From: Candidatus Rokuibacteriota bacterium
GTDB lineage: Bacteria > JAUVQV01 > DATDCY01
Reading direction: 5' to 3'
Assembly: GCA_031406795.1 (NCBI GenBank)
Contig: JANOHV010000007.1
Location: 48,574-112,573, forward strand
Length of the DNA stretch: 64,000 nt
In this document: one piece after another, positions 2,776 through 58,364 of the stretch
How the letters are laid out: each line of letters begins with the position of its first letter
Numbering within the stretch: the first letter of the stretch is position 1
The notes under the pieces: model-generated
Seen by the model: the letters and a program-made list of their open reading frames with translations, nothing else
Databases searched by the model: none
Told to the model about the DNA's origin: nothing
Made by a program: the position numbers and the translations under genes

Positions 2776-4379
2776 CGTCTCCTCCCAATCAATTCGTCAA
2801 TCTTTGCCACAATCCGGTGCTGTTCGGCGATGGGAGGAATTGGGATCCGTACCAACTTTAGATTGGAGGCGCTGATACCCCAATTCCCAACCGTCGTCGC
2901 ACAATAAGTTTCTATGTCTTCACGTACTACTGCTGATTTAGCAAACCATCGAACAAGTTCCGGAAGGACGATCCTTGTAGACAAACGGAGGCGGATAAGC
3001 TTATCCGGAAAGATCTGACGTAAACCCAGGTAGCCGGTGTACAGGGAAAGGCGACCTACAAAGTCTCGATTACCATTGAAACGGCATGCCAGGAGATCAC
3101 CGGGTTTTAGGCTGAATTGCTCCTGGAGTTTGCGAGTTATCCCGCCAATGAGTTTATATTCTTCTTCAGCAACAATTCCGTCTCTTCTGATTGTCCCAGC
3201 GCTAATACGAAGGATCGGAACTCCATTTGTTGCCTCGTCTGGCTTCTTGGAATATCCGTTTCGGGAGTCGTCAAGGAGTATGTCCTCAATCCTGACCCAT
3301 TCCCAACCAGACGGAAGCTGAAGAGGTTGAATCTTCCCACCTTCTTGGGTCACCGATTCCTGACGTATCGCTCGGTCTGCTGATTTTAGTTGATCGTTCG
3401 CTGAACGTGTCCGCCCCAAAAGGGTAGCGACAGGCTCGTTCCTTGAATCCTGGGGGACGAGTTTGCCGCGAACGGCTAGGTTTAGGATGGTTTTGCGGAG
3501 TTGGTGGATGTGTTCGGGACGGGTGGTGAGGCGCGGGAGGTAGTTGAAGTAGAAGCGGGCGCTCTCCTCGAAGGTGGTGGGGGCGCCGGGTGTCTGGGTG
3601 GCGTCGCCGTTGTTCAGGCCGTGGAGAGTTGCCGCCACCAGGCGGTCGCGGCGCTTCTCGCGTTTGGTTTGCGCCGCCTCCAGTTCGTCGCACAGCGCCA
3701 TCAGCTCGTCCACCTTCGCCACGATTCGGCGTTGCTCGGCGAGGGGCGGAAGTGGAATTGCCGCGGCTCTTAGAAGTTTGAAATGGCGACCATACCCACG
3801 GCTGTCCAGTGGCAACCATCTGAGCGCGAGATAGTAAAATTCTGTCAGCACGCCAAGGGGATGAAGGAGTTTCACGCCATCTGCCCCGACTACGAAGTCA
3901 AAGTCGATTAGTTTTGTTTCTCGTGTATGGTCACCAAACAGGATGATCGGCGCATCAACATGGATGACTTTATGCTGATCGTTGCAATAACCCCTGATGA
4001 AAACCTTGCCTTGGTCGACTACAGGGAAAGCACCCGATTCCAAAACATCCTTTGTCTGAACCTTTTTCCCCATGTCCGAGATCAGATATGCTGGAAAAGT
4101 GGCAGGAACCCATTCCCATGTCGGCGGAATCTCGAACGGCATCTCTGATCTTTCAATCGACTCGAACGGCTCTTGGCTTCTGATCTCCCCGGCCTTCACC
4201 AGCTTCGTTTTCTCAGCCTGAATTTGTTTCAGCAACTCCCCCGCCGGCTCATCCTTCGGATCCTGCTCCACGAGCTTTCCGCGCACGGCCAGATCCAGGA
4301 TGAATCTTCGGAGGCGCGGGACGGCCTCGGGGGTGTCGATGAGACGATCGAAATGTTCGAGGAGGCGGGCGGGACTCAT
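2772..4379 (-). CDS. hsdS: Type I restriction-modification specificity subunit HsdS (two target-recognition domains)
   Basis: Long ORF 2772..4793; the real start is ATG 4379 (MSPARLLEHFDRL...), which overlaps the hsdM stop as ATGA. Shows the conserved HsdS repeat LAEQRRIVAKVDELMALCDELE / IAEQHRIVAKIDELIGRRR after each TRD. Confidence 0.85.
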   Translation of the reverse strand: MSPARLLEHFDRLIDTPEAVPRLRRFILDLAVRGKLVEQDPKDEPAGELLKQIQAEKTKLVKAGEIRSQEPFESIERSEMPFEIPPTWEWVPATFPAYLISDMGKKVQTKDVLESGAFPVVDQGKVFIRGYCNDQHKVIHVDAPIILFGDHTRETKLIDFDFVVGADGVKLLHPLGVLTEFYYLALRWLPLDSRGYGRHFKLLRAAAIPLPPLAEQRRIVAKVDELMALCDELEAAQTKREKRRDRLVAATLHGLNNGDATQTPGAPTTFEESARFYFNYLPRLTTRPEHIHQLRKTILNLAVRGKLVPQDSRNEPVATLLGRTRSANDQLKSADRAIRQESVTQEGGKIQPLQLPSGWEWVRIEDILLDDSRNGYSKKPDEATNGVPILRISAGTIRRDGIVAEEEYKLIGGITRKLQEQFSLKPGDLLACRFNGNRDFVGRLSLYTGYLGLRQIFPDKLIRLRLSTRIVLPELVRWFAKSAVVREDIETYCATTVGNWGISASNLKLVRIPIPPIAEQHRIVAKIDELIGRRR

Positions 4380-5815
4380 CGCAGCAGCGCCTGCTCCAGA
4401 ATGGCCTTGAGTTTGTCGCGGAGCTTTGCCGTCGCGGCCTCGCTCTCGTTGAGTTTGGCGAGCAGCTCGGCGGGATCGCCGTGGTCTTCCTCGACGGTGT
4501 GGGGATTCTTGATGTCGAGGTTGTAGCCGCGGGCCTTGATGTCGTCGATCGTGACCTTCCAGGCGATCTCGTTCTTCTCGCGCTTGTCCCACCAGTCGAT
4601 GCAGGGCTTGAAGTGCTCGAAGCGGATCGGCCTGGTCATGGAGTAGGCCTTCTGGCCGTCGGGGACGCGGTGCTCGTAGAACCAGACGGTTTGGGTCGGC
4701 GTCCCCTTCTCGAAGAAGAGCAGGTTGGTGCCGATGGAGGCGTAGGGCTTGAAGACGCTGTTGGGCAGCCGGACGATGGTGTGGAGGTTGCACTCCTCCA
4801 GCAGGTGCTCCTTGAGGCGCGTCTTGACCCCCTCGCCGAAGAGCGTGCCGTCGGGCAAGACCACGGCGGCGCGGCCCTGGGACTTGAGCAGGCGCACGAT
4901 GAGGGCGAGGAAGAGGTCGGCGGTCTCGCGCGTCTGGAACTGCTACGGGAAGTTGCTCTCGATGCCGTCTTCCTCGCGGCCACCGAAGGGGGGATTGGTC
5001 AGGACGATGTCCACCCGGTCGGACTGGGTGTAGCTGGTGTAGGGGCGCGCCAGGGTGTTGTCGTGACGGACGAAGGAGGGGTCCTCGATGCCGTGGAGCA
5101 GCATGTTCGTCACGCAGAGCATGTGCGGGAGCTGTTTCTTCTCGGTGGCGCGCAGGGCTCCCTGCATCTTACGTTCGGCGGCCGGGGTCTTCACGTAGCG
5201 CTCGCGCATGTGGCGGATGGCGCAGGTGAGGAAGCCGCCGGTGCCGCATGCGGGATCGTAGAGGATCTCGCCGGGCTTCGGGTCGATGCGGTCGGCCATG
5301 AAGGCGGTGACGGCGCGCGGGGTGTAGTACTCGCCCGCGTTGCCGGCGCTCTGGAGGTCGGTGAGGACCTGTTCGTAGATGTCGCCGAAGTGCTGACGCT
5401 CGCTGAGGTTGTTGAAGTCGATGCCGTTGATCTTGTTGATCACCTGGCGCATCAGCTGACCGGACTTCATGCAGTTGTAGGCGTCCTCGAAGACGTCGCG
5501 CACGACGCGGCGCCGGCCGTCCCGGGCGACGCCGGAGAGTTCCTTAAGGGTCGGGAAGAGCTTGTCGTTGATGAAGGCGAGCAGCGCATCGCCGGTCAGC
5601 CCCTCGGGGTCGGCGGCCCAGGCGCGCCACTGGAGCTTGGCCGGGATCGGCGAGCGGTAGCCCTTCTGGAGCTGCTCCAGCTCCTGGTCCTGGTCGTCGA
5701 TGATCTTGAGGAAGAACATCCAGCAGAGCTGGGAGATGCGCTGGGCGTCGCCGTCGACGCCGACGTCCTGGCGAATGATGTCCTGGATGGATTTGACGGT
5801 GGTGCGGACGGACAA
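4376..5815 (-). pseudogene. hsdM: Type I R-M N6-adenine methyltransferase HsdM, interrupted by one in-frame amber codon (TAG at 4943-4945)
   Basis: ORFs 4943..5815 (HsdM N-terminal domain, ..TNPPFGGREEDGIESNFP*) and 4376..4897 (..GRAAVVLPDGTLFGEG..) are in the same frame. Reading through the TAG gives FP*QFQTRETADLFLALIVRLLKSQGRAAVVLPDG, a colinear HsdM. TTG start with AAGGAAGAG SD. Confidence 0.7.
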
Positions 5816-6532: not shown

Positions 6533-8997
6533 CTATGCAACGGCGTAGAGGGCGGATTGGAGTTCGTGGACGGCCCGCTCGAAGCCCTCTCGGCCGCCGA
6601 AGCGCCGCAGGAGCTGGACCGGGGTGCCCATGGTATCGAAAGGGGCGATCTTGAGGATCTGCGGGTCGTCGAGATCGGCAATCCCCTGGTCCTGGTACTT
6701 CTGCAGCAGCGCTTCGAGCACGGCGCGGGCCTGTTCGCCGTAGCGGGTGAAAACGTCGCGCTTGCGGACGCTGTCGACGCGCTCGCGCCGGGTGAGCGGC
6801 GGCTGGTCGAAGGCGACGTGGCAGATCAGGTCGAAGGCATCGAGGTCTTTCCCCACCTCGTCCGCGAGCGGCTCCAGCAAGAGACCCTCGTTTTCCAACT
6901 CCTCGATGACCGCTTCCTTGCGCTCGGCGGTGTTCCAGCGCCCGAGGAAGTCATCGAGGCTGGCGAAGTGCTTGCGCAGCGTGCGCTTGGAGTAGTCGCG
7001 GAGGCTCTCGGTGACGAGCTTCCCGTTTTCGTCGAGGTATTCGATGCGCTCGGTAAGGATGCGGACCTCGTGGCCGCGGATGAAGTACTTGGACGGGTGC
7101 TCGTTGGCGTTGCCGGGAGGAAGGCTGATATCAGGAGGCCAGGGCTGGCCGTCGACGATTACTTCGTCGTTGCCCGGTTCGGGCGGAATAGGGTCTTCAT
7201 CATCGACAGGCGGCGGCACATCGTCCGGTGGACTGACCGGATCCCCATCCCCCGGCTCGTAGATCTGCACCGGCTCGCCGTCGAAGTCCGGATCGGCAAA
7301 GTGGTTCGTGGCCTTGCGGAAATCGATCAGCGTGAAATAGAACTTCTTCGTGTCCTCATGCACGCGGGTGCCGCGCCCGACGATCTGCTTGAACTCGGTC
7401 ATGGAGCCGACTTCACGATCGAGCACGATCAGCCGGCAGGTCTGGGCGTCGACGCCGGTGGAGAGCAGCCGCGAGGTGGTGACGATCACCGGAAATCTCG
7501 CTTCAGGGTCGATGAAATTGCCGAGCGCGCCTGGCCCTCGGGGTCGTCGCCCGTGATGCGCATGACGTAGCGCGGGTTCTGGAGCGTCAGGTCCTGGTTT
7601 TCGTTGATCAGCGCCTGACGCATCCGGGCGGCGTGTTCGGTGTCCACGCAGAAGATGATGGTCTTCTGATAGCGATCGCCGCTCTCCCTCAGGAACTCGG
7701 TCACCCGGCGGGCGACGCGCTTCGTGCGCTCGTCGATCACGAGATTGCGGTCGAAATCCTTCTGGTTATAAATCCGGTCTTCAATCTCGTAGCCGTACGT
7801 GTCGGTCTCGCCGCGGGTGGGGCGATAGCCCTCCACATCGACGTCGAAGTGGACCTTCACCGCCTTGTAGGGCGCGAGGAAGCCGTCGCGGATCCCTTCT
7901 CTGAGCGAGTAGGTGTATACCGGTTCGCCGAAGTAGTGGATGTTGGAGACGTATTCGGTCTCTTTCGGCGTGGCGGTGAGACCGATCTGCGTGGCGGAGG
8001 AGAAATGGTCGAGGATCTCGCGCCAAGCGGAATCCGCTGCCGCACTGCCGCGGTGGCATTCGTCGATGACAATGAGGTCGAAGAAATCGGGAGAAAGTTC
8101 GCGGAAGAGCTTCTGGCGCTCCTCCGGGCCGGTGATTGCCTGGTAGAGGGCGAGGTAGATCTCGTAGGAGGTGTCGATGCGCCGCTGCTTGCGATCAACG
8201 GCGGTGGGGAGCCGGACCTCGCTGCCGTCCTCGCGTTCGATGGTCTTCGAGGATGTGCTGAGCTTGGCCATCGCGGCGCCGAAGGGACGGAAGTCGTTGA
8301 CCATCGTCTGGTCGATCAGAACGTTGCGGTCGGCGAGGTAGAGAATGCGCTTTCTGCGGCCGGCCTTCCAGAGGCGCCAGATGATCTGAAAGGCCGTGTA
8401 CGTCTTTCCGGTTCCGGTGGCCATGACGAGGAGGAGGCGATTCTGTCCCGCTGCGATGGCCTCGATGGCCTTGTTGATCGCGATGCGCTGGTAGTATCGC
8501 GGCTCCGTGCCTCCCGGATCCTCGTAGTAATTCTGGAGGACGACCTCCTCCTGGGCTGGTGCGAGGCTCTTCCAAGTTCGATATCTGGACCAAAGCCTTT
8601 CGGGGGAGGGAAAGGCGTCGAGGGAAAGGTTCGTCTCGGTCTGCTCGCCGAGGCCGGTCCGGTCGTGGAAGACAAAGCCGCTGCCGTTGGATGTAAAGAC
8701 GAACGGGATATCGAGGGTAGTCGCGTATTCCAGAGCCTGCTGCATCCCGGCGCCGACGGCGTTGTTGCCGTCCTTGGCCTCGATCAGTGCGAGGGGGATG
8801 TTCGGCTTGTGGTAGAGGATGTAATCGGCCCGTTTGGCCTTGCCCCGGGTGACCAGCTTGCCGCGGACGATGATCCGCCCTTTGGTGAACCCGACCTCCT
8901 CGCGAATCTGGGAATGGACATCCCATCCCGCTTTGACAAGAGCGGGAGTGATGAACTTGGTGCAGATGTCCCGCTCGCTGAGGTCCTTTACGGCCAT
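6533..8997 (-). pseudogene. hsdR: Type I restriction endonuclease subunit HsdR, frameshifted near 7486-7490
   Basis: N-part ORF 7486..8997 has helicase motifs ([19 protein letters not shown]) and ends ..[10 protein letters not shown]-part ORF 6533..7489 (GTG start) continues IVTTSRLLSTGVDAQTC..QIVGRGTR in a different frame (8997-7489 is not a multiple of 3). No slippery site or homopolymer at the junction. Confidence 0.7.
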
Positions 8998-9163: not shown

Positions 9164-9811
9164 TTACTCGAGAAGCCCGCGCTCCCGGGCCTTGAGCACG
9201 GCCTCGGTTCTCGAGCGCGCCTGGAGCTTGCGGTAGATCTTCCCGACGTGGGTGTGGACCGTGTGGGGGCTCAGCGCGAGCTCAGCCGCCAGTTCCTTCT
9301 CGGGCAGGCCGGTGGCGAGCCGGCGCAGCACGTCGCGCTCGCGCGCGGTGAGTGTCGGGCCCGCGGCCGGTCCCTTCCCCTGGCGCAGCTCTTCGACGAC
9401 GCTGCGCGCCACCCGGGCGGAGAGGGGTGAGCCGCCTGCAGCGGCCGTGCGCACCGCGGCGAGAATATCGACCGCGGAGGAGCCCTTGAGCAGGTAGCCG
9501 CTCGCGCCAGCCCGCAGCGCCGCGAGGAGGTGCTCCCGGTCTTCATGCATCGTCAGCACGACGATCTCGACGAGCGGGAAGTACTCCTTGATGGACCTGA
9601 TGACCTCGAGTCCCGGGAGGTCCGGCAATCCGAGGTCGACAAGGGCAACATTCGGCAAGGTGCGCCGCAGCCCGTCGACGGCCTCGCGGCCGGTGGCGTA
9701 GGCCCCGACGACCTCGATCCCCTCCGTCCCGTGGAACAGCGCGGCCAGGTAGTTCAGGGTCGCGCGGTGGTCCTCGACGATCGCGAGCTTCAGGTTGGTC
9801 TGCACTTTCAT
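9164..9811 (-). CDS. NarL/LuxR-family two-component response regulator (REC + LuxR HTH)
   Basis: ORF 9164..9916, trimmed to MKVQTNLKLAIVEDH (ATG 9811). REC motifs (VDLGLPD, phospho-acceptor Asp) and a C-terminal LuxR HTH (LTARERDVLRRLATGLPEKELAAELALSPHTVHTHVGKIYRKL). Confidence 0.85.
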   Translation of the reverse strand: MKVQTNLKLAIVEDHRATLNYLAALFHGTEGIEVVGAYATGREAVDGLRRTLPNVALVDLGLPDLPGLEVIRSIKEYFPLVEIVVLTMHEDREHLLAALRAGASGYLLKGSSAVDILAAVRTAAAGGSPLSARVARSVVEELRQGKGPAAGPTLTARERDVLRRLATGLPEKELAAELALSPHTVHTHVGKIYRKLQARSRTEAVLKARERGLLE

Positions 9812-10146
9812 CGGGCCGCTTCCTCGGGCAAGGGGTGAACGGCTGTTGTCCCGGGGATTAGACGGCAGCGGGCCGCAGCTGTCAACGGCGCTTGATGGAC
9901 GGCCGACCGGGCTCACCCGCCATCGCCTGGTCAGGTGAGGGGCGCTTCACCTGCTGCGTCAGCATGAAAACGACCGTTGCGGCGCGGTCCCGCGGATGCA
10001 CTGCCGTATTTTCATGGGCCTGGCGGTACGCCGCCCGCGGAACGGGCTCGCGTTCTCCATTGCCGTGCTGCAACCGGAGCCGCCGCCCCGGCGTAACGGA
10101 TGCCGTCAGGGTGTCGTGGTCAACCACCAACGGAGGAGTGCCAGGT

Positions 10147-12906
10147 ATGAAGGCTCGTCGAGGTACGCTTCGCACACTCGTCGCTCTCGCGCTGTTCTGT
10201 TCGCTGCTCGTCGGCGGAGGCGGGCTCGCCCGCGCCGACCTGCAGAGTCCGTGGGTCACCGTGCTCTCCGGAAGGGTCCAGGCCGTGGTCACGACCGCGA
10301 GCGCCGCCCCGGGAGCCCCCCGGGTCGTGTTCGCCGGCACCCCCACTGCTACGCTCAGGAGCGAGGACGGCGGGCTGACCTGGACGCAGGTGCTCGCAAC
10401 GTACACGAGTGCCTTGGCCGCCGACCCGGTCAGCGGCGGCGTCGTCTATGCCGCGACGGCGTCGGGCCTGCAGAAAACCGCCGACTACGGCCTGACCTGG
10501 ACGAACCTCAACCCATCGATCAGGACCAGCATCGCCGTGAGCCCCTTCGACGGCCAGGTGCTCTTCGGCGGCAGCTATCGGAGCACCGACGGCGGCGCGA
10601 CGTGGACGGTGATGTCTGGATTGACGTCAGGGTCCTCGACCCCCCATCTCAGTGCATCGCGGGACCCGGCCAACCCCGGGGACCTGCTCTACTTCACCGG
10701 CAGCGTCCACCGCAGCCTGGACAACGGCCTGAGTTGGACGCCGGTGAACGTCGGGTTCAACGAGGACTCGGCCGCGCTGGACCCGACGGACCCCCGCTAC
10801 TATTACGTCGGCGCCTGCGGCGGCACCATCTTCCGCGCGTTCCCCGGCGGGAGTTCGAGCTCTTCGAATATCGGCGGGCACGTCCACGGGATCGTCGTCG
10901 ACCCGGGGTCCCACAACCGGGTGTACGCGGCGCGCGACTCCGGCGGCGTCATGGTCAGCCAGGACTTCGGCGCGACCTGGGCCTCGTCAGGAACCGGCGC
11001 ACCCTCCGGCGTTGTCGAGAACAGGATGTTCTTCGACGCCGACTCCGGGATCATCTACCTGCCGACCTACGGAGGCCTCTCCGTCAAGAACAGCCGCTGC
11101 TCCGACCTCGACCACGACGGCGCCTCCGCCGAGGGCGGGCTCTGCGGCGCGGTCGACTGCAACGATGCCGACGCGGCGCGCAGCCCGTTCAAGAAGGAGA
11201 ACTGTTTCGACGGGATCGACAACAACTGCACGGAGGCGATAGATTTCGCGGACACCTGGTGCGCCACGATGTGCGTGGACGGCGACGGCGACGGGCACTT
11301 CCCGCTGCTCTGCGGCGGCGACGACACCAAGGACGCCGACGCGACGATCTACCCCGGCGCCCCCGAGCTCTGCGACGACAAGGACAACGACGTCGACTTC
11401 GTGGTGGACGAGGGGTGCACGCGCTACACGTACTATCGCGACTCCGACCTCGACGGCTTCGGCAACCCCGATTACACGACCCTTTCCTCCTTCACCACGC
11501 CGCCTGTCGGCTTTCTCGCAGACAATCGGGACTGCAACGACTGGGATCTGAACACGCACCCGGGGGCCGTGGACTTCTGCGGCGATGCGGCCGACAACGA
11601 CTGCGACGGAACGCCGGACAACGGCTGTCCGACGTTCACGTACTTTGCCGACATGGACGGCGACAGTTTCGGCGATCAGAGTCGGGTGGTCGTGACGACC
11701 GTTACCGATCCCCTCGCCGTCGGGGCGAGCCTGAACAATCTCGACTGCAACGACGCGGCGTACTGGGTCAACCCCGACGCCCTCGAGGAGTGCGACTGGG
11801 TCGACAACAACTGCGACGGGGTCGTCGACGAAGTCTGCGGCCACGCGGCCATGCTCTGGGGCGACAACGCCAAGGGACAGGTCGGCGACGGCACCACGAC
11901 GGACCGCAAGTCCCCGGCGTCGCTGGCCGGGCTCTCCCCGCTCGCGGTTGCCGCCGGCAATCAGCACACGCTGGTCGTCAACAACGACGGCACGGTCTGG
12001 GCCTGGGGAGTCAACGGGAGCGGTCAGCTCGGCGACGGGACGACGACGACGAGGAAAAGCCCGATCAAGGTTTCAGGGATCTCCGGCGTCGCCGCGGTCT
12101 CGGCCGGGCTGAACCACAGCCTGGCGCTCAAGGCCGACGGCACGGTCTGGGCCTGGGGCGCCAACGGCAACGGTCAGCTCGGCGACGGCACGACGACCAC
12201 GAGAAAGACGCCCGTCCAGGTCTTCGGCCTCGCTGGCGTCATCGCCGTGTCGGCGGGCAACTACCACAACCTGGCGCTCAAGAGCGACCAGACGGTCTGG
12301 GCCTGGGGCAGCAACGGCGACGGCCGGCTTGGCGACGGCACGGCGACCACGCGGAAGACGCCGATCCAGGTAATCGACACTCTTGCGGGCTTCGAATACG
12401 CAATCGCGGTCGCTGCCGGCGGGGACTTCAGCCTGGCAATCGATCAGTACGGGTCCGTCTGGTCCTGGGGTAGCAACTGCGCCGGGCAGCTCGGTGACGG
12501 CTCCACGGTCACCAGGAAGAGTCCAGTCATGGTACCCGGCCTCTCCAACGTCGCATGGGGCATTGCCGCGGGCGCGAGCCACGGCCTGGCCATGACTGGC
12601 GAAGGCGTGATGGCGTGGGGGTCGAACGCGAAGGGGCAACTCGGCGACGGCACGACGACGACGCGCAAGACGCCCGTGTTGCTGCCGGAGAGCTACAACA
12701 TCTGGGCGATCGCCGCAGGCGGCAGCCACTCCCTGGCGCTGGGTTGGGTCGGCGATGTCATTGAACTGCAGGCCTGGGGGAGCAACGGTGACGGGCAACT
12801 CGGCGACGGCACCACGACGAACCGGAAGACGCCGGTCGTGGTGCCGGGTCAGAGCGACGCGCTCTTCTTCGCGGCCGGCGGGGCGCACAGCGTTACGTTG
12901 AGATAG
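10147..12906 (+). CDS. Large secreted multidomain protein: signal peptide, BNR/Asp-box (SxDxGxTW) beta-propeller, MopE-like Cys-rich putative metal-binding repeats (C.D.D....E.CDG.DNDCDG), then a 7x RCC1-repeat beta-propeller
   Basis: ORF 9892..12906, start set at ATG 10147 (MKARRGTLRTLVALALFCSLLVGGGGLARA signal peptide). BNR motifs SEDGGLTWTQ, TADYGLTWTN, STDGGATWTV, SLDNGLSWTP, SQDFGATWAS. Repeated CNDxDxxxxPxxxExCxDxxDNDCDG units. RCC1 repeats G(S/A)NxxGQLGDGTTTxRKxP x7. Confidence 0.8.
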   Translation: MKARRGTLRTLVALALFCSLLVGGGGLARADLQSPWVTVLSGRVQAVVTTASAAPGAPRVVFAGTPTATLRSEDGGLTWTQVLATYTSALAADPVSGGVVYAATASGLQKTADYGLTWTNLNPSIRTSIAVSPFDGQVLFGGSYRSTDGGATWTVMSGLTSGSSTPHLSASRDPANPGDLLYFTGSVHRSLDNGLSWTPVNVGFNEDSAALDPTDPRYYYVGACGGTIFRAFPGGSSSSSNIGGHVHGIVVDPGSHNRVYAARDSGGVMVSQDFGATWASSGTGAPSGVVENRMFFDADSGIIYLPTYGGLSVKNSRCSDLDHDGASAEGGLCGAVDCNDADAARSPFKKENCFDGIDNNCTEAIDFADTWCATMCVDGDGDGHFPLLCGGDDTKDADATIYPGAPELCDDKDNDVDFVVDEGCTRYTYYRDSDLDGFGNPDYTTLSSFTTPPVGFLADNRDCNDWDLNTHPGAVDFCGDAADNDCDGTPDNGCPTFTYFADMDGDSFGDQSRVVVTTVTDPLAVGASLNNLDCNDAAYWVNPDALEECDWVDNNCDGVVDEVCGHAAMLWGDNAKGQVGDGTTTDRKSPASLAGLSPLAVAAGNQHTLVVNNDGTVWAWGVNGSGQLGDGTTTTRKSPIKVSGISGVAAVSAGLNHSLALKADGTVWAWGANGNGQLGDGTTTTRKTPVQVFGLAGVIAVSAGNYHNLALKSDQTVWAWGSNGDGRLGDGTATTRKTPIQVIDTLAGFEYAIAVAAGGDFSLAIDQYGSVWSWGSNCAGQLGDGSTVTRKSPVMVPGLSNVAWGIAAGASHGLAMTGEGVMAWGSNAKGQLGDGTTTTRKTPVLLPESYNIWAIAAGGSHSLALGWVGDVIELQAWGSNGDGQLGDGTTTNRKTPVVVPGQSDALFFAAGGAHSVTLR

Positions 12907-13031
12907 CGCACCAGAGGATCGGGATTCCCGGCAGGGGCGCCGACCTTCAGTCGCGAGGTCGGCGCCCCTTTCCGGGGAATCCTGTGGGCAATTCTTGACA
13001 ATGACGGGCCGCGTCCGGAGAATCGCCCGGC

Positions 13032-14501
13032 ATGGCAGGCGGGGAGCTCTTTTCGCAGATCTTCTCCCTCTGTCCCGACGCCATCAACGTCAACCGGCTG
13101 CGGGACGGGGTGTTCCTGGCGGTCAACGAGGGCTTCACCCGGCTGACAGGGTACAGCGAGGAGGACGTCCGGGGGAGATCGGCCCTGGACCTGCAGCTCT
13201 GGGTCAATCCCGAAGACCGCAGCCTGCTGCTCGCCCGGCTGCGGTCGGGCGACGAGGTCGCGGATTTCACGACGGAATTCCGGCTCAAGAGCGGTCTGAC
13301 GAAACCCGGCTCCCTCTCCGCGCGGCTGATCGTCGTCGACGGCGAAGAGTGCCTGCTCAGCTACACCCGCGACATCTCCGAGCGGCAGATGGCCGAGGAT
13401 GCGCTGCGGCAGTACCACGAGGCCGCGTTCATGATCGAGAACGCGCCGATGGGGATCTACATCGCCCAGAACGGCCTGCTCGTCTACGGCAACCAGTGGC
13501 TGCGCGAGTTCTGCGGCATCGCAATGTCCGATCTGCCGCGCGACCCCTTGAGCGTGGTCGTCCCCGAAGACCGTGAGCTCGTCCGCGAGCAGATGGTCAA
13601 GAGGATGCGCGGCGAAGAGTCGCTGCCCCAGTACACCGTACGCCTCCCGAGGAAGGACGGCTCCATCGCGCACGTGGAGCTCATCGCCAAGGTGGTGACC
13701 TATCGTGGCCTGCCGGCGATACAGGGTTCCATCGTGGACATCTCGGCGAAGGTCGCCGCCGAGCAGCGGCTCCGCGAATATGCGGCCGAACTCGAAGAGT
13801 CCAACCAGCTCAAACTGCTCTTCAACGACATCCTGAGCCACGACCTTATGGACCCGCTCTGGGTGGCCACCGGCCAGACGGACCTGCTTGCCGATCGGGT
13901 CTCGCCGGAGCACCGGGATGTGCTGCGGTCGATCCAGGCGGCGCTCGCGGAGGCGAGGGAGATCCTCTCCGACGCCCACGCGTTCCTGCGGCTCAGGGAC
14001 GACGAGGGACTCTCCTTCGCGTCGCTGGACCTCTGCGCGCTGCTCCGCGAGGTCGCGGCGGCTTTCGCGCCGGAGATGGCGCAGCAACGGATCGGCGTCG
14101 ATATGCGCGTCCCGCGGGAACTGCAGGTGGAAGCCAGCCCCGTTTTGCGGCAGGCGTTCTCGAACCTGCTCTCCAACGCCCTCAAGTATGGGCCCGCGGG
14201 TTCGGCGGTGATCGTCGAGGCGCAGGAGGGGCCGCCCGTGCGGGTCGTCTTCCGGAACCGGGGCGAGCGCATTCCCCCGGAATTCCGCGAGCGGGTCTTT
14301 CAGCGCTTCGTCCAGGGGGGCAAGCAAGGCATCAAGGGGGTCGGCCTGGGCCTCGCCATCGTGAGGAGAATCGCGGACCTCCACGGGGGGAGAGCCTGGG
14401 TCGAGGACGACCCGGAGGGCGGGTGCGCCTTCTTCTTCGAGTTCCCGCGCCAGCAGCCGGAAACGGTCGGCGAAAAGGGTCAAGAGTCTCCAGCTGGTTG
14501 A
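13032..14501 (+). CDS. PAS-domain sensor histidine kinase (cytoplasmic; 2 PAS + HisKA + HATPase_c)
   Basis: 489 aa. PAS region at the N-terminus, H-box ILSHDLMDPL, and N/G boxes LSNALKYGP...GVGLGLAIVRRIADLHGG. Confidence 0.85.
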   Translation: MAGGELFSQIFSLCPDAINVNRLRDGVFLAVNEGFTRLTGYSEEDVRGRSALDLQLWVNPEDRSLLLARLRSGDEVADFTTEFRLKSGLTKPGSLSARLIVVDGEECLLSYTRDISERQMAEDALRQYHEAAFMIENAPMGIYIAQNGLLVYGNQWLREFCGIAMSDLPRDPLSVVVPEDRELVREQMVKRMRGEESLPQYTVRLPRKDGSIAHVELIAKVVTYRGLPAIQGSIVDISAKVAAEQRLREYAAELEESNQLKLLFNDILSHDLMDPLWVATGQTDLLADRVSPEHRDVLRSIQAALAEAREILSDAHAFLRLRDDEGLSFASLDLCALLREVAAAFAPEMAQQRIGVDMRVPRELQVEASPVLRQAFSNLLSNALKYGPAGSAVIVEAQEGPPVRVVFRNRGERIPPEFRERVFQRFVQGGKQGIKGVGLGLAIVRRIADLHGGRAWVEDDPEGGCAFFFEFPRQQPETVGEKGQESPAG

Positions 14502-17539: not shown

Positions 17540-19225
17540 CTACTTCGCCGGAGCCGCCGCCGGTGCGGCCGCGGGCGTGGCGGCCGGCGCCGTTGCCGCG
17601 GGCGGGTTCAGGGCGTCGTTGATGATCTTGATGCCCTTCTGCGACTCATCGATCGACTTCGCGATCGACTCGCGCGCCAGCTCCGGGTTGTGGTAGCCGT
17701 CCGAGTTCTCGGCGGTCCAGTACTCCCAGAGGATGTGCGCCCGCAGGTGCTGGTCCTGCGCCTGCTTGATCACGTCGGCGGCAAGGCCGGCCTTCTTGCC
17801 CTCGACGATCTTGTCGATCAGGGCCGAAAGCCAGAACTCTGCCTTGCGCAGCTTGCCGCGGGTGTAGGCCTTCACCGAGTCGATCGCGTACTTTGCGGTC
17901 TCCTCGGTGTATTCCTTGTGGCATTTCAGGCAGGTCTCCTTGAGCTGGTAGCGCGGCGAGACGGCGAAGTGCGAGGTGTACTCCTTGCCGCTCTTCGGGT
18001 CCTTGCGCTTCGGCGTGTGGCAGTCGTCGCAGGAGACGCCGCCTTTGGCGTGCTTGGAGTTGTAGAAGCTCTCGGCCTCCGGGTGCTGGGCCTTCCAGAG
18101 CAGGCCGCCCGTGAGCGTGTGCTTGAAGTCGCCGAACGCGATCTGGTTCACGTAGTGGTCGTAGAGTCCGAGAACGTCCTTGTAGGGGAAGTGGTTGGTG
18201 CGCGCGTCGTCGAACTTCACCGGCTGCCCGGTCTTCAGGTCGGTGCCGGGGTTGCAGTTGTACTCGACGTGGCACTGCCCGCACAGCAGCCGCGAGTCGT
18301 ACTTCTCGAGCAGGGCGATCTTGCGCGTGAACCCGCGCACCCCCATGTCGATCACCTCGATCTTCGTGCGCTTCTCGTCCTTGTGCCAGAGCGTGTCGGC
18401 CTCCGGGCGGGTCAGCGCCTGGATCAGCCCGTCGCGCACGATCCGGGGCTTCGCGGCGTGGGGGTCGTGGCACATGAAGCAGTTCAGGGCGTGCTCGATC
18501 GTGCGGGCCACGTCGACCACGTTCGAGGCGCGCGAGAACTTGGCGCCCTTGGCGGCCGGGTCGCCGAGGTAGGCCCAGTCGAGGATCTGGTCCTGGGACT
18601 TGCACTGCATGCAGGTCGCGTTCGCGGCGGCGGCGGTCTGGGGCATCCAGGCCTTCTGCTCGTTGGTCTCCGGGTGCGTGTCGACCAGGTACTCCCAGGT
18701 CGTCTTGCCGGTCTTCTCGGTGACGTAGTGCCAGCCGTTCTTCGGCTGGAAGCGTCCGCCGAAGGCGCGGTCGACGGCGAACTGGTCGACGACCATCCAG
18801 GCGTGGCTGCGCGTCAGGTTGTGCTCTTTTGTGAAGCCGTGCCCCATCATCAACTTGTCCCAGAAGGGGTTCGGCGAGCGACCCGTCAGCTGGCTCTTCT
18901 CGTCGCGCGCGGGGCGGTGGTAGGACATCTCGAGGAAGCTCTCGTACTGCGCCTTGTGGCAGGAGCCGCAGACTTCCGGGCCCATCCTGGTGACCGGGCG
19001 GGTCTTCTCGTCGGCGAGGTGCTTGTCGATCCCGTCGTGGCACTTCTCGCAGCCGACCTTGGTGTGCTTGCCGCCGGCGTGGAGTTTTTCGATGGTGTCG
19101 TGACAACCGTAGCAGTCCGCGATCTTGAAGCCCGGGCCGGCCTTGGCCGCCCCGGCGTCGGTGGCGCTGAGCGCAATCAGCGCCGCGGCAGCGACGAACC
19201 AGGCAACAGCAGGTTTCCGCGTCAT
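17540..19225 (-). CDS. Secreted octaheme c-type cytochrome of the ONR/NrfA-like nitrite-reductase family (3 CXXCH + CXXCK + 4 CXXCH) with a Pro/Ala-rich C-terminal tail
   Basis: ORF 17540..19252, trimmed to MTRKPAVAWFVAAAALIALSA (ATG 19225, GGGGGGAG SD). Haem motifs CYGCH, CEKCH, CGSCH, CMQCK, CFMCH, CGQCH, CDDCH, CLKCH in the same order as octaheme nitrite reductase (TvNiR-type: three extra N-terminal haems, then the Lys-ligated catalytic haem, then four). Tail NPPAATAPAATPAAAPAAAPAK. Confidence 0.85.
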   Translation of the reverse strand: MTRKPAVAWFVAAAALIALSATDAGAAKAGPGFKIADCYGCHDTIEKLHAGGKHTKVGCEKCHDGIDKHLADEKTRPVTRMGPEVCGSCHKAQYESFLEMSYHRPARDEKSQLTGRSPNPFWDKLMMGHGFTKEHNLTRSHAWMVVDQFAVDRAFGGRFQPKNGWHYVTEKTGKTTWEYLVDTHPETNEQKAWMPQTAAAANATCMQCKSQDQILDWAYLGDPAAKGAKFSRASNVVDVARTIEHALNCFMCHDPHAAKPRIVRDGLIQALTRPEADTLWHKDEKRTKIEVIDMGVRGFTRKIALLEKYDSRLLCGQCHVEYNCNPGTDLKTGQPVKFDDARTNHFPYKDVLGLYDHYVNQIAFGDFKHTLTGGLLWKAQHPEAESFYNSKHAKGGVSCDDCHTPKRKDPKSGKEYTSHFAVSPRYQLKETCLKCHKEYTEETAKYAIDSVKAYTRGKLRKAEFWLSALIDKIVEGKKAGLAADVIKQAQDQHLRAHILWEYWTAENSDGYHNPELARESIAKSIDESQKGIKIINDALNPPAATAPAATPAAAPAAAPAK

Positions 19226-19473
19226 GGTAGCTCCCCCCCGTTGGATGTCCAACCGCCCGACGGACGGTTGCCCGACCAGCGAAACCTCACGAAACCCAGA
19301 GTGGCGGATCCCTCATCAGGCACCTCACGCGAGCAGTGGTGCAATGAGCCGGTGTTCACAAGCAATGTATTCCCGAACGGGGGCAGCGGTCAAGCAACGC
19401 TTGCAGCGAGCAGCACGGTCCGGTATGAGCCACGAGACCCGAAAGACAAGACCTGGGAACAAACCTGCCTCAA

Positions 19474-50146: not shown

Positions 50147-53100
50147 TTAGTTCAGCGTGAAGGTCGTCGTCCTGATGATGCCGTCCCAGGCAACGCCGTT
50201 CGTCACGTTGGTGACTCTTACCGTGTAGGTCCCCTTGACCGCGCCGCGCGACCGCCACTTGGCGATCGCGTACCCGCTCGTGGCGGTTGTCGAGGTCAAG
50301 GCCGTCACCAGCGCCCCGCTCGGCGCGAAGATCTGCTGCGTCACCGTCGCTCCGCTGACGCTGGCCGGCGGCGGCGGAACCGCGGTCACGTGCGCCCGGA
50401 CGTTGACGTCGGCCCCGGCGGCGAACGTGGTCTGCGGGGTGAAAGTGCCGCTTTTCGACACTGTTCCCGTCTGGAGCTGATCGACGCTCACCTGCTGGCC
50501 GATCTGAATCGTCGTCGTCACGGACGCCGAGCCGGGCAGATGGCCCGGTGCAGAGGCGGCGACGGTCGTGACATTGACCCCGCCGCCCTGGTTTCGGAGC
50601 GCCGTCACGGTAAGCGTGGCGGTGCCAGTCTCTCCCGCCGCTAGCGTGAGGGCAGTCGGCGCGATCGCCGACGGCGCGAAGTTCGTGGTATTGCTGTCAG
50701 CCGATGTCAGCGCGTAGGTCGCGGGCTGACAGCCGGAGCCGCTGTCGTTGTTCAGCACGCTGGCCGCGTACGTGACGCTGCCGCCATCCGTCGTGATCAG
50801 CCGCGAAGCGGGCGTGAGCGTCACGGTCGGGGCGGTGAAGTTGCAGTTGGCGCAGTCGGCGGCACAGTAGGTTGGGCCGCTCACCTGCTCCTGCCCTTCG
50901 CAGAGCCAGTCCCCGCAGCAGGCCGCCAGCCGCATCATGTCCCGGCAGAAGAAACCGGGTACCTCGCAGATCGGATCGAGGTTGGCGTCGAGTGTCTTGC
51001 AGCCGGCGGCCACGGTGCCGCAGCCGGGAGCGCAGTCGCCCGAACAATTCGTCGCGTTCTCGCCATCGCCGAGCTCGCAGAGCCGGTTGCCACAGAACGA
51101 GCCGAGGACGGCGGGGCAATCTCCCGGACAACTCACGCAGTCCTCGCCCCGTTCACAGATCCCGTTGCCGTTGCAGGCCAAGTTGACCACCTGGAACTGG
51201 CGCATCATCTCGTGGTCTTCATGCTCGATGATGTGGCAGTGGAAGGGATATCTGCCGTAGAAGTCCGGCGTCCCGGCGTGATCCGTGAAGCGGAGAACGA
51301 CTCTCGTGACCTGCCCGGGCATCGCCTTGACCGTGTCCTTCCAGGCGGCGGCCTCCAGCGGATCGGGGGGGATGATCGGCCCGGTCGGACTGCCATTGAC
51401 ATCGACCGCCTGGCGATTGACCACCTGGAACTCCACCAGGTGGATATGCATTGGGTGCATCACGGTGCTGGTGTTCCTGAACTCCCAGACCTCGGTGGAG
51501 CCGATGGGCGGGAATTCGGTGAGGTCGTCCCAGTGCTGGCCGAGGACGGCGCCGTTCCAGCCGCCGTTCAAGGTCTGGATCAGCCACTCTCCGCCGACGC
51601 ACGGCTCAGGAACGCGCTTGAGGTCGAAGTAGCGGTGAGAAGCGCCGGTCTGATTGAGCGGCTCGAAGTAGGGGAGCGTCGGCCGCAGCTGCGTGGCGAT
51701 CGCGCCGGTGAACCCGCTCCTCCTCCCGACGATGAACTTCAGTACGTTCTGGGTGCCGAAGGAGGGCGCCATGCCGGTCGGGAAGTCGGTGACGGCGCTG
51801 TTCTTCATAATGACTTCGGTGTTTCGTGCCAGACCTCCGAAATTCACGACGATGTCGAATCGCTCCGCCGGACCGAGCGTCAACTGCGTGATGGGCTGGC
51901 CGTTGGCCAGGGTCCGCGGCGTGTCGTAGAATCCGCCCTCGGTGGCGAGCACGGTGATCGGGAGCTGGGGCCGCGCGGCATTGGTGACGTTTACAAAGGA
52001 GATGGTGTAGGTGCGCGTGCTCGACCCGTTGAGAATCCTCAGGCGATACTTGCCCTGGTCGACGTTCAGATAGGGCCAGACCTTGCCATTCACGAGGATG
52101 TTGCTGCCGTGGAACATCTGGTTGCTGATGTCGAGCGCCGGCTCGTAGCGCAACGAGCCGTCGGGATAGAAGTCCCGGTCCTGGATCGCCAAGCCAAGCT
52201 CGTAGGGGCCGCTCGGCAGCTGGTTGGCGGCGATCAGACCGTTCTCGTACGCATCGCGCAGCAGGTAGAAGGCGGCCATGCCCATCGTCACGTTGAGCCG
52301 GGTGATGCCGAGGGCGTGATCGTGGAACCAGAGGGTCGTGGGTTCCTGGTTGTTCGGGTACTCATACGTGTCGGATGCGCCGGGGAAGAAGTCGTACTCC
52401 GGGTTTCCGTCGAATCTCGGGGGGACGTGTCCGCCGTGCAGATGCACGACGGTCCGCGGCGAGTCGCGCCACTCCATCGGCCCGTGCGGGCACGGGTCGA
52501 CCGGCATGTAATGGCTCGTCCGCAGCTGGCCGGTGTTCAAGTCGCGCAGGTCGTTGCTGTAATTCACGATGATCGGCTGATTCTGCTGCGCCACGATGGT
52601 CGGCCCGGGGTAGCTGCCGTTGTACCCCCAGACGGTCGTGTCCGGCAGGTCGCGGTGGAGGTTCTGGGTGAACTCGGTCATCGTGACGTTGTAGATCGGC
52701 TTGCCTTGGGGATCGGTCCCCACGGGCTGCAGGACCGGCGGAATCGGCAGAGGATCCCGCCACGGGACGAGCCCACAGCTGCTGCAGGCCTCGTTCGGTC
52801 CCTGGAACGTCCCGCCCAGCGCGGAACACTCCGTCACCGTCACGTTCTGGCACGTGAAGTTGATGTCCTCGGCCGGGATGCAGCAGGCCCCGGGCACGTC
52901 TGAAGCGCAGGTGGACGGTGCGCAGACATCCACGCCAGTCTGGAACGTGCCGCCGCGGGCCGTGCAGCCGGCGTCAGTGTCGAATGCGCACGAGTTGTCG
53001 GCCAGGCAACAGGCGTCGTAGGCCGGCGAAGGCGTCTGACCGTCGGGCGCCGTGAAGCTCACATCCAGGAGTGGAGGATCGGCCCCCTCCCGGGAGCTGA

Positions 53101-53743
53101 AGCGATAAGCCGTCTGGTTGGCGGCTTCATTGCCCAGCAGCAGCCAGCCGAAATTCGACGAGGGCGACCCGATCCAGCCCTGGACATCCGCAGTCAACCG
53201 CGTTCCGGTGAAGGTGTACGGCCCATTGGCGGTCCCGACGAGCGCCGAAGCGCTCGGGAGGGCCGCCGCATCCGTGGCGGCCCCGGGGACCGTCCAGGGC
53301 ACATGAGGGGCCCCGGTGATCCGATTGATCCACGTCGCGTCAGGAGGTACGGCTAGAGCGCCCTGTCCGGCGTTCGCGTCGCAATTGGAGGCCCCTTCTC
53401 CCCAATCCGCAAGCAGGTAATAGAGGTTAAACGTCTCGGCGTTCGCGGCCCGGGACCTGTCGGTGGTCAGGATCACGCTCGCCTGGGTCACCGTGGAGCC
53501 CGCCGGAATCGCCGCCGGGACGCCGAAGGAGATCAGGGCGCGGCGCACGGCATTTGAGGCATCCGTCCTGCCGGCGATGATCCCCGACCCGGCGCCGCAG
53601 CTGTTGTTTTCGAACTGTGCTCCCTGATAGATCGTATTGTCCTTGTTCGGGATGCCCACCCACTGTTCGGCAGATACGGTGCCGATGCCCACCGCGAGCA
53701 GCGCGGTCGTGGCTATCGCGCCCAGAAAGGCTATCTTCTTCAC
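50147..53743 (-). CDS. Large secreted multicopper oxidase (CotA/bilirubin-oxidase-like core with four Cu-binding His motifs) carrying an extra ~270-aa N-terminal beta-rich domain and C-terminal Cys-rich / Ig-like regions
   Basis: 1198 aa, signal peptide MKKIAFLGAIATTALLAVGIGTVSA. MCO motifs HLHGGH, WFHDH, HPMHIHL, HCHIIEHEDHEMM. N-terminal domain blocks (VRRALISF, ADWGEGAS, DATW, NFGWLLLGNEA, RFSSREGADPPLLDVSF) are paralogous to the adjacent gene 53833-54543. Confidence 0.8.
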   Translation of the reverse strand: MKKIAFLGAIATTALLAVGIGTVSAEQWVGIPNKDNTIYQGAQFENNSCGAGSGIIAGRTDASNAVRRALISFGVPAAIPAGSTVTQASVILTTDRSRAANAETFNLYYLLADWGEGASNCDANAGQGALAVPPDATWINRITGAPHVPWTVPGAATDAAALPSASALVGTANGPYTFTGTRLTADVQGWIGSPSSNFGWLLLGNEAANQTAYRFSSREGADPPLLDVSFTAPDGQTPSPAYDACCLADNSCAFDTDAGCTARGGTFQTGVDVCAPSTCASDVPGACCIPAEDINFTCQNVTVTECSALGGTFQGPNEACSSCGLVPWRDPLPIPPVLQPVGTDPQGKPIYNVTMTEFTQNLHRDLPDTTVWGYNGSYPGPTIVAQQNQPIIVNYSNDLRDLNTGQLRTSHYMPVDPCPHGPMEWRDSPRTVVHLHGGHVPPRFDGNPEYDFFPGASDTYEYPNNQEPTTLWFHDHALGITRLNVTMGMAAFYLLRDAYENGLIAANQLPSGPYELGLAIQDRDFYPDGSLRYEPALDISNQMFHGSNILVNGKVWPYLNVDQGKYRLRILNGSSTRTYTISFVNVTNAARPQLPITVLATEGGFYDTPRTLANGQPITQLTLGPAERFDIVVNFGGLARNTEVIMKNSAVTDFPTGMAPSFGTQNVLKFIVGRRSGFTGAIATQLRPTLPYFEPLNQTGASHRYFDLKRVPEPCVGGEWLIQTLNGGWNGAVLGQHWDDLTEFPPIGSTEVWEFRNTSTVMHPMHIHLVEFQVVNRQAVDVNGSPTGPIIPPDPLEAAAWKDTVKAMPGQVTRVVLRFTDHAGTPDFYGRYPFHCHIIEHEDHEMMRQFQVVNLACNGNGICERGEDCVSCPGDCPAVLGSFCGNRLCELGDGENATNCSGDCAPGCGTVAAGCKTLDANLDPICEVPGFFCRDMMRLAACCGDWLCEGQEQVSGPTYCAADCANCNFTAPTVTLTPASRLITTDGGSVTYAASVLNNDSGSGCQPATYALTSADSNTTNFAPSAIAPTALTLAAGETGTATLTVTALRNQGGGVNVTTVAASAPGHLPGSASVTTTIQIGQQVSVDQLQTGTVSKSGTFTPQTTFAAGADVNVRAHVTAVPPPPASVSGATVTQQIFAPSGALVTALTSTTATSGYAIAKWRSRGAVKGTYTVRVTNVTNGVAWDGIIRTTTFTLN

Positions 53744-57094: not shown

Positions 57095-57230
57095 GTCAAG
57101 GGGGAGTAGCTGAACCGGCCACCATCGTCAGCACGGCCCGTAGGGGCCCGGTGGCGCCGGATTCGGGGAACTGAACAGGCGAGACCTTTGTCGCGGCGCA
57201 CGAGTGCTGCGGCAAAGGTCTTTTTTTTGG
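57095..57230 (+). promoter_or_regulatory. Probable yybP-ykoY (Mn2+) riboswitch with an intrinsic terminator as expression platform, 5' of the UPF0016 exporter gene
   Basis: Conserved elements read directly: AAGGGGGAGUAGC (57097-57110), CGUCAGCA, GGCGAGACC, then GACCUUUGUCGCGG...CCGCAAAGGUC + U8 (57183-57228). UPF0016/MneA-type genes are a known target class of this riboswitch. Confidence 0.5.
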
Positions 57231-57290
57231 CTCGGGAGGGGCGATGCAGCGCAAGAAGGACGCCGGCGCCGGCTGGGCGGGCGGGCGCGG

Positions 57291-57965: not shown

Positions 57966-58047
57966 CGGGGTCAAAGGCACGGGACGCGTGCGGTGGAGCC
58001 CCGCCGCCCGTTGAGGAAAACAGGCACAACCTGAGAGGGAGACCGGC

Positions 58048-58338
58048 ATGAAGTGTCCGACCTGCAGCATCGACCTGGTGATGTCCGAGCGACAGGGCAT
58101 CGAAATCGACTACTGCCCGACCTGCCGGGGCGTCTGGCTGGATCGGGGCGAACTCGACAAGATCATCGAGCGATCGCAGCAGGACCGCACGGAGGCGCCG
58201 CAGGTTCCGATCCCGCAACAGCCGGTGCGGCGTGAGGAGTATCGCGGGAGCGATCACCACCATGGCAGCCACCATGACGATCACGGCTACTCCGGGAAGC
58301 ACAAGCGCAAATCATTCCTTGCGGAGTTATTCGACTGA
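58048..58338 (+). CDS. Zinc-ribbon protein (TFIIB-type zf) with a His-rich C-terminal tail
   Basis: 96 aa. MKCPTCSIDLVMSERQGIEIDYCPTCRGVWLDRGELDKII...GSDHHHGSHHDDHGYSGKH. Confidence 0.55.
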   Translation: MKCPTCSIDLVMSERQGIEIDYCPTCRGVWLDRGELDKIIERSQQDRTEAPQVPIPQQPVRREEYRGSDHHHGSHHDDHGYSGKHKRKSFLAELFD

Positions 58339-58364
58339 CGCTCTCTCGAAACGAGGTACATCGC

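Follow-up and report, generated by a model that had tools for sequence, protein, structure and literature searches.

Within the window analysed here, a 64,000-nucleotide stretch of a Candidatus Rokuibacteriota genome (contig JANOHV010000007.1 of assembly GCA_031406795.1, positions 48,574 to 112,573), a gene at 10147-12906 on the forward strand encodes a protein in which a seven-bladed BNR/Asp-box beta-propeller and a seven-bladed RCC1-like beta-propeller are joined by an acidic, Cys-rich linker of four PF11617 units. We propose, with moderate confidence, that this two-propeller protein is a Sec-exported, soluble, non-enzymatic, two-headed binding protein with a disulfide-stapled, probably Ca2+-loaded stalk, the expression of which would be set by its neighbours. 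The gene and its domains are ordered as follows.

10132-10138, forward strand: ribosome-binding site GGAGGAG, read from the sequence, 8 nt 5' of the ATG at 10147
10147-10236, forward strand: signal peptide (residues 1-30) with a basic n-region, a hydrophobic core and an A-x-A cleavage site (between ARA and DL)
10237-11094, forward strand: seven-bladed BNR/Asp-box beta-propeller (residues 31-316), assigned by Pfam, motifs and AlphaFold2
11095-11844, forward strand: acidic Cys-rich linker of four PF11617 units (residues 317-566), assigned by Pfam and composition
11845-12903, forward strand: seven-bladed RCC1-like propeller (residues 567-919)

An initial annotation, made from the DNA letters without database searches, had described a protein of 920 residues. 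The open reading frame at 10147-12906 is real and uninterrupted (919 codons and a stop codon); the stop had been counted in, and the product is of 919 residues (about 92 kDa, pI 4.3). The region around the gene has a GC content of 66-68%, which agrees with the name 'Candidatus Methylomirabilia bacterium' carried by cluster mates (identity of 90% or higher) of two proteins of the window. Three observations favour the ATG at 10147 as the start: it is preceded by a ribosome-binding site, the N-termini of five orthologues align from its Met and a typical signal peptide follows. In alignment A2 of four closely related orthologous loci (the window's own, L078, L080 and L081), GGAGGAG or GGGGGAG is kept throughout. 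The longest reading frame, from a TTG at 9892, was rejected: it lacks a ribosome-binding site, would add an unconserved stretch at the N-terminus and enters the promoter region of the adjacent regulator gene (see below). The signal peptide reads MKARRGTLR, then a hydrophobic core, then ARA and, past the cleavage site, DLQSPW; it is the sole hydrophobic segment of the protein (Kyte-Doolittle maximum at residues 8-30). The cleavage motif (A-R/L-A before the D) is conserved in the orthologues and Cys18 of the signal peptide is not. The protein sequence shows neither a transmembrane segment nor a lipobox, nor a sorting signal at its C-terminus, and lipoprotein anchoring was rejected on account of the missing canonical lipobox and the unconserved signal-peptide Cys. 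Sec-type export and cleavage of the signal peptide are thus predicted from the sequence.

All three domain assignments of the initial annotation passed their Pfam thresholds, and none failed. BNR/Asp-box propellers are recognized by S-x-D-x-G-x-T-W boxes repeated at a spacing of about 40 residues; the N-terminal propeller has five Asp-boxes by motif count (at residues 72, 111, 146, 190 and 271) and matches PF02012 with 31.9 bits (cut-off 27), while a Sortilin-Vps10 match (32.8 bits) falls just below its cut-off of 33. AlphaFold2, run on a 54-sequence alignment (A1), gave a model with a mean predicted local distance difference test score (pLDDT) of 82, consisting of two propellers, each of seven four-stranded blades with pLDDT above 90, separated by a linker of pLDDT 40-75; in the N-terminal propeller, 28 strands form the seven blades, mostly at pLDDT >90. 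A profile of the N-terminal domain matches the propeller halves of glycoside hydrolase family 74 (GH74; 7e-48), the dispase autolysis-inducing protein DAIP (1.7e-23), Ycf48 (6e-17) and sortilin (1e-13), as well as the BNR protein 3b7f and, more distantly and through the Asp-boxes, sialidases (1e-10). This type of propeller is very common (34,524 representative proteins at E<=1e-3), and its usual label at the Joint Genome Institute (JGI) is 'photosystem II stability/assembly factor-like'. Membership of Ycf48/HCF136 was rejected, as PF14870 (PSII_BNR) is not among the Pfam hits at E<=1; no photosystem genes occur among the window's open reading frames that were scanned.

The C-terminal domain is the RCC1 propeller that the initial annotation had counted as seven-bladed. 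It matches PF00415 in seven stretches (E=1.9e-72, 240 bits, cut-off 21.7) and the RCC1-like domain PF25390 over residues 569-916 (E=9.6e-80, 269 bits, cut-off 150), and seven 'WG.N..GQLGDG' repeats are counted at residues 571-877. Its modelled fold is seven-bladed and superposes on RCC1, UVR8 and the RLD of HERC2. RCC1 proper, the Ran guanine-nucleotide exchange factor, has a Ran-binding face, a beta-wedge and a nuclear or cytosolic location. To our knowledge, no Ran partner exists for a bacterial protein that is exported; identity with RCC1 proper is not claimed.

Between the propellers, PF11617 ('Cu-binding_MopE') matches in four stretches (E=5.4e-27, 94.2 bits, cut-off 27), which bears out both the MopE-like module of the initial annotation and the accession that it had tentatively given. 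The 250 residues of the linker include 57 Asp and Glu (23%), 4 His, 2 Met and 18 Cys; the latter all lie within residues 318-564 and are invariant in five orthologues. The units follow the roughly 30-residue PF11617 pattern DC[ND]D...P.A.E.C[DN]G.D[ND][ND]C[DN]G..DE. Each opens with a DxDxDG-type loop (DLDHDG, DGDGDG, DSDLDG and DMDGDS in units 1-4, respectively), and the core that closes the unit reads D-C-N-D-x7-P-x-A-x-E-x-C-x-D-x-x-D-N-[ND]-C-[DN]-G-x-x-D-x-x-C.

11098-11262, forward strand: unit 1 (residues 318-372); C318 and C333 bracket the DxDxDG loop, core with C338, C353, C361 and C372
11272-11418, forward strand: unit 2 (residues 376-424); C376 and C389 bracket the DGDGDG loop, degenerate core with only Cys2 and Cys4 (C409, C424)
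11425-11628, forward strand: unit 3 (residues 427-494); YYRDSDLDGFG hairpin, full core with C463, C478, C486 and C494
11635-11838, forward strand: unit 4 (residues 497-564); YFADMDGDSFG hairpin, full core with C534, C549, C556 and C564

The best PF11617 match within the linker is to unit 4 (residues 533-562). D2, P12, D20, D23, N24, D31 and Cys2/Cys4 are invariant across the units (alignment A4). The Cys residues come and go in pairs. In unit 2 of all orthologues Cys1 and Cys3 are jointly lost, with Cys2 and Cys4 retained (alignment A4); in the motif segments of MopE and of acyloxyacyl hydrolase (AOAH), and in the last unit of shorter relatives such as P0067 and P0103, Cys1 and Cys3 are retained and Cys2 is absent. 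The pair bracketing the DxDxDG loop is likewise present as a whole in units 1 and 2 and absent as a whole from units 3 and 4. From this pairwise gain and loss we infer a 1-3/2-4 disulfide topology and nine disulfides, predicted as 318-333, 338-361, 353-372, 376-389, 409-424, 463-486, 478-494, 534-556 and 549-564. The two remaining Cys of the mature protein, C224 (10816-10818) and C778 (12478-12480), lie one in each propeller and are invariant in five orthologues. A disulfide between the propellers (C224-C778) is possible; it is not required, since the short relatives that have no RCC1 domain also keep the equivalent of Cys224.

As for the metal that such a linker may hold, an alignment published by Tucker et al. 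pairs the core of PF11617 with the cysteine-rich region of teneurins (PMC3278476), and the 1.5-Å structure of the teneurin-4 C-rich domain has three Ca2+ on acidic residues and three disulfides, and resembles thrombospondin T3 and LDLR-A modules (PMC9058538). At the level of a motif, the linker has the same spacing of Cys and acidic residues, C-x-D-x-x-D-N-D-x-D-x-x-x-D(-x-x-D-x-x-C), as the teneurin C-rich domain (PDB code: 7plp), thrombospondin type-3 and LDLR-A modules; the pattern aligns with the reported Ca2+-ligand positions of teneurin-4. Units 3 and 4 have the full set of D3, D6, N7, D8, D10 and D14, numbered from the Cys, and the pattern is also found in unit 1, which has in addition the D17/C20 extension and bears a teneurin/gametolysin-like extension, CFDGIDNNCTEAIDFADTWC (compared with Table 1 of PMC3278476). 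The number and spacing of the Cys differ between the teneurin domain and the linker, and homology of the two is unproven. The Asp-rich, His- and Met-poor composition of the linker suggests Ca2+ rather than copper; binding of Ca2+ is likely and binding of copper unlikely. The profile of the PF11617 units also matches RDCNDSDKTVYPGRRPDNWDAHRDSNCNG in the large subunit of mammalian AOAH (residues ~50-80; PDB codes: 5w78 and 5w7a), at a non-significant E of ~1-4; should this match prove genuine, an existing crystal structure already shows a PF11617-like unit.

Purifying selection acts on the gene: the ratio of non-synonymous to synonymous substitution rates (dN/dS) is 0.28-0.37 against four orthologues, and all Cys of the mature protein (20/20) are invariant across the orthologues compared. 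It evolves faster than its neighbours, with dN and dS both about twice those of the flanking genes: in the comparison with the syntenic locus L078, the flanking genes are 86-93% identical (dN 0.04-0.09, dS 0.30-0.40) and the secreted protein is 72-73% identical (dN 0.19, dS 0.62). Relaxed constraint alone may not account for the doubled dS, to which recombination with more distant alleles may have contributed. In the same comparison the N-terminal propeller is the least conserved part (60% identity, dN/dS 0.41, dS 0.77), its dN/dS ranging over 0.37-0.46, and the RCC1 propeller is the most conserved (82% identity, dN/dS 0.21).

The initial annotation had called this architecture unusual. It is indeed rare and belongs to one clade; its parts, however, are common, and combinations of propellers with PF11617 recur elsewhere. 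Among 5.8 billion proteins the BNR-PF11617-RCC1 architecture forms six 90%-identity clusters (the identical NCBI protein P0001, and P0002-P0006 at 66-83% identity), and all proteins with the full architecture fall within one 50%-identity cluster among 1.84 billion representatives; it is confined to one small clade, probably Methylomirabilota. Short forms of 450-575 residues (P0021, P0067, P0071, P0103, P0345 and P0371) consist of a BNR propeller and 1-3 PF11617 units. They share with the two-propeller protein a homologous signal peptide and BNR propeller (38-48% identity), but lack the RCC1 propeller and end in a small beta-rich domain, of about 95 residues in P0021, P0067, P0071 and P0103. 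P0396 (682 residues) has the same N-terminal propeller followed by Big_1, with no PF11617 match, and in P0027 and P0037 PF11617 is followed by RCC1. The fact that the N-terminal propeller and PF11617 stalk carry other C-terminal domains in relatives supports a modular build. Elsewhere PF11617 accompanies lectin, FG-GAP, Calx-beta, sulfatase and type IX secretion system (T9SS) sorting domains. To judge from these domain combinations, PF11617 behaves as a promiscuous extracellular spacer, and propellers with runs of PF11617 are a recurring, uncharacterised design.

The following neighbouring elements, and a more distant gene of the window, bear on regulation and on the alternatives considered below.

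9164-9811, reverse strand: NarL/LuxR-type response regulator of 215 residues, with Response_reg and GerE domains
9932-9953, no strand assigned: inverted repeat CAGGTGA-N8-TCACCTG in the divergent promoter region, candidate operator
13032-14501, forward strand: soluble PAS-PAS histidine kinase of 489 residues, with PAS_9, PAS and HATPase_c domains, 125 bp downstream of the two-propeller gene
50147-53743, reverse strand: multicopper oxidase of 1198 residues, with Cu-oxidase_2 and Cu-oxidase_3 domains

The divergent LuxR-type regulator, which the initial annotation had recognized, has its true start at 9811 and not at the GTG at 9916. A hydropathy scan of the PAS kinase revealed no hydrophobic or transmembrane segment. 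Regulator, secreted gene and kinase form a syntenic trio in L078, together with genes for a zincin-like protein, PtsP, an NrfA-like cytochrome and FKBP. In L078 and L082 an orthologous 215-residue regulator adjoins the secreted gene, as does a shorter 205-residue call in L081, and kinase orthologues stand beside it in L078, L081, L083 and the contig of P0004. One or both of the signalling genes are likewise its neighbours in L081, L082, the P0004 contig and L080/L087, and this is so in 6 of the 8 loci that carry either the gene or a relative of the short form. At L083, a short-form locus, the 215-residue regulator is 75% and the kinase 71% identical to those of the window; the short form P0103 adjoins the orthologous regulator (75%) and kinase (71%), the secreted proteins being only 38% identical. 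In L080/L087 the regulator lacks residues ~106-174 and the kinase residues ~205-358, by internal deletions or frameshifts; the secreted gene that lies between the two is undamaged, and purifying selection on it persists.

The inverted repeat at 9932-9953, a candidate operator, is unique in the window and is found exactly in L080, L081, L082 and L087, and with one mismatch in L078. At 5749-5764 of L083, about 250 bp upstream of the secreted gene, a GGTGA-N6-TCACC repeat is present that may just as well terminate the gene before it. At 12995-13023 a match to a sigma-70-like promoter (TTGACA-17-GAGAAT, 10/12) ends 9 nt before the start of the kinase gene at 13032; transcription from this site would produce a kinase mRNA with no leader or almost none. 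The interval between the secreted gene and the kinase gene revealed no hairpin resembling a terminator.

In the mechanism that we propose, a soluble and non-enzymatic protein would be exported by the Sec route. Its two rigid seven-bladed propellers would serve as separate ligand-binding heads, joined by a 250-residue spacer of four PF11617 units that nine disulfides would staple and in which Ca2+ would be held by the DxDxDG loops and the C-x-D-x-x-D-N-D-C-D-G-x-x-D cores. The protein would thereby bind or cross-link two extracytoplasmic macromolecules, glycan or protein, and may act as an adhesin, a matrix component or, by analogy with BLIP-II and DAIP, a tight-binding inhibitor. The NarL/LuxR-type regulator and soluble PAS kinase encoded next to it probably control its expression. 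An adhesion or binding role, of which the adhesive part had already been suggested in the initial annotation, is plausible.

Several points weigh against this proposal. A Sec signal peptide in diderm bacteria guarantees the periplasm only and not export beyond it. The fold of the linker is poorly predicted (pLDDT 40-75), and its likeness to teneurin is at the level of a motif, the profile match to 7plp being non-significant (E=7.3). The regulatory link to the two-component system is not obligatory, since the regulator and kinase of L080/L087 carry internal deletions beside an intact secreted gene and since the pair is missing in L079 and L085. Finally, the N-terminal propeller is closest in sequence to halves of GH74 hydrolases, and because of these nearest sequences an enzymatic role retains some probability. 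The protein would then be a secreted glycoside hydrolase with a catalytic, GH74- or sialidase-like BNR propeller, in which the RCC1 propeller and linker serve carbohydrate binding or anchoring. We consider this unlikely. GH74 catalysis requires two tandem seven-bladed propellers that form a cleft, whereas here a single BNR propeller of 286 residues is present, and the GH74 matches cover single halves of enzymes of 700-790 residues; the sialidase (GH33) FRIP motif ([FY]R[IV]P) is absent from the protein; and the match to the F510_1955 family glycosylhydrolases (NCBIfam NF045728) reaches 61.2 bits against a curated cut-off of 175, so that none of the three memberships was accepted. Moreover, the nearest relatives outside the family carry a non-enzymatic annotation, as propellers that are 'photosystem II stability/assembly factor-like', and the N-terminal domain is the fastest evolving part (60% identity, dN/dS 0.37-0.46), which is unusual for a catalytic core.

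Handling of copper or another transition metal, in which the PF11617 units would bind Cu for surface scavenging or buffering, perhaps together with the multicopper oxidase, is improbable to a still higher degree. It had been advanced, as metal handling at the surface, in the initial annotation, and draws on the Pfam name of PF11617 ('Cu-binding_MopE / putative metal-binding motif'), matched four times, on the oxidase, which lies within the window at 50147-53743 as that annotation stated, and on an experiment by immobilized metal affinity chromatography (IMAC), in which the first 24 residues of MopE* were suggested to contribute weak Cu(II) binding (PMC3423442). MopE* is the only solved protein that shares the PF11617 motif, which maps to its residues 15-47 (the linker sequence matches at E=0.05, and the unit profile at 4.8e-6 over MopE* residues 17-43), and no similarity to the two-propeller protein was found elsewhere in MopE. 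The motif, however, lies outside the crystal structure, in which residues 1-46 of MopE* are not resolved, while the high-affinity Cu(I) site is made of His132, His203 and kynurenine130, and electron paramagnetic resonance (EPR) of MopE does not support coordination by Cys (PMC3423442). The copper reading of the linker therefore rests on a Pfam name; the Cu(I) site has no counterpart in it. Membership of the MopE/CorA copper proteins was rejected, since only MopE* 15-47 aligns and the domain with the His132/His203/Trp130 (kynurenine) site is absent here. With 4 His and 2 Met the linker is poor in such ligands, and its Cys are lost pairwise, like disulfide partners. The scan of neighbouring genes turned up none of the cop/cus type and none for a chaperone. 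The oxidase, an unusually large member of its family, is 37 kb away and beyond the comparable part of the neighbourhood, and no result ties it to the two-propeller gene, for which reasons a functional link between the two genes was rejected.

The conserved linkage also allows for a single sensory module of three genes, in which the exported protein captures an extracytoplasmic signal for the adjacent two-component system. Regulator, secreted protein and kinase adjoin in most loci, even where the secreted protein is 38% identical as against 75% and 71% for its partners. The kinase, on the other hand, has no transmembrane or periplasmic part and thus no direct contact with an exported protein, the secreted gene survives intact in L080/L087 and occurs without the pair in L079 and L085, and the linkage has a simpler explanation if that gene is a target of regulation, so that we hold such a module to be very improbable. 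What probability remains falls to something else. A more speculative and unlikely extension of the proposed binding role is a dedicated three-gene module in which an intracellular signal sensed by the PAS kinase would deploy a fast-diversifying two-headed binder with an exchangeable distal head (RCC1, the beta domain or Big_1), in an arms race with other organisms or phages, for example as a decoy, an inhibitor of enzymes of foreign origin or an adhesin for prey or partner. The identities of 38% versus 71-75%, the doubled dN and dS values and the least constrained N-terminal propeller are compatible with it.

Elsewhere in the window, the segment 183-8997 has a lower GC content (54-64%) than the 64-70% seen across 8-40 kb. 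It contains a gene for an AbiEii-type toxin (183-1175) and an apparently decayed type I restriction-modification system, with hsdM split into two open reading frames (4376-4897 and 4943-5815) and hsdR into two that overlap by 4 nt (6533-7489 and 7486-8997). Since the syntenic locus L078 holds different genes at this position, the segment looks like an inserted defence island. On the reverse strand, 17540-19252 encodes a 570-residue c552/NrfA-type multihaem cytochrome that has additional CXXCH motifs and is syntenic in L078. At 57204-61067 on the forward strand, a gene for a divalent cation/proton antiporter of the GDT1 family is followed, after about 400 bp, by one for a 900-residue P-type cation ATPase with Cation_ATPase_N and _C domains; the pair possibly serves Ca2+/Mn2+ homeostasis.

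The value of these results is mainly corrective. The name 'Cu-binding_MopE' invites a copper annotation of thousands of exported PF11617 proteins in Myxococcota, Bacteroidota, Planctomycetota and others, while the sole structural study of MopE puts the copper site in another part of that protein, and the motif has the appearance of a Ca2+/disulfide stalk element. Being small and soluble, the two-propeller protein would be a convenient model for a first structure of a PF11617 unit and for its metal specificity, and it could reveal ligands of bacterial extracellular RCC1-like propellers.

Compared with known systems, MopE and MopE* of Methylococcus capsulatus (PDB code: 2vov) have one PF11617-type segment in common with the linker, whereas their copper site and folded domain are without counterpart in the two-propeller protein; because the rest of MopE is so different, the Pfam name is no evidence of copper binding here. 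Ycf48/HCF136, DAIP and 3b7f are seven-bladed Asp-box propellers, like the N-terminal domain, at an identity of only 25-33%, and unlike the two-propeller protein they have no PF11617 or RCC1 modules. DAIP is a secreted Streptomyces protein that reportedly acts by binding a protease. BLIP-II, the beta-lactamase inhibitory protein II of Streptomyces exfoliatus (PDB codes: 1jtd and 3qhy), is, in contrast to the two-propeller protein, a single domain of about 270 residues with shortened blades. The nearest designs are RCC1-PF11617-RCC1 proteins, which among the matches listed come from Myxococcus AM401 (L001), Corallococcus terminator (L002) and a Planctomycetales metagenome-assembled genome (L055), and cover, again among those matches, query residues 290-919 or 308-919. 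They are functionally uncharacterised and so reveal no mechanism. They have runs of 5-7 PF11617 units and RCC1 blades with the same signature as here, but are longer (1240-1678 residues) and carry an RCC1 propeller on both sides, where the two-propeller protein has a BNR/Asp-box propeller at its N-terminus. The latter belongs to the RCC1-like, PF11617-repeat and BNR/Asp-box families, and is a lineage-specific, domain-shuffled exported protein of which the combination is rare and the parts are ordinary.

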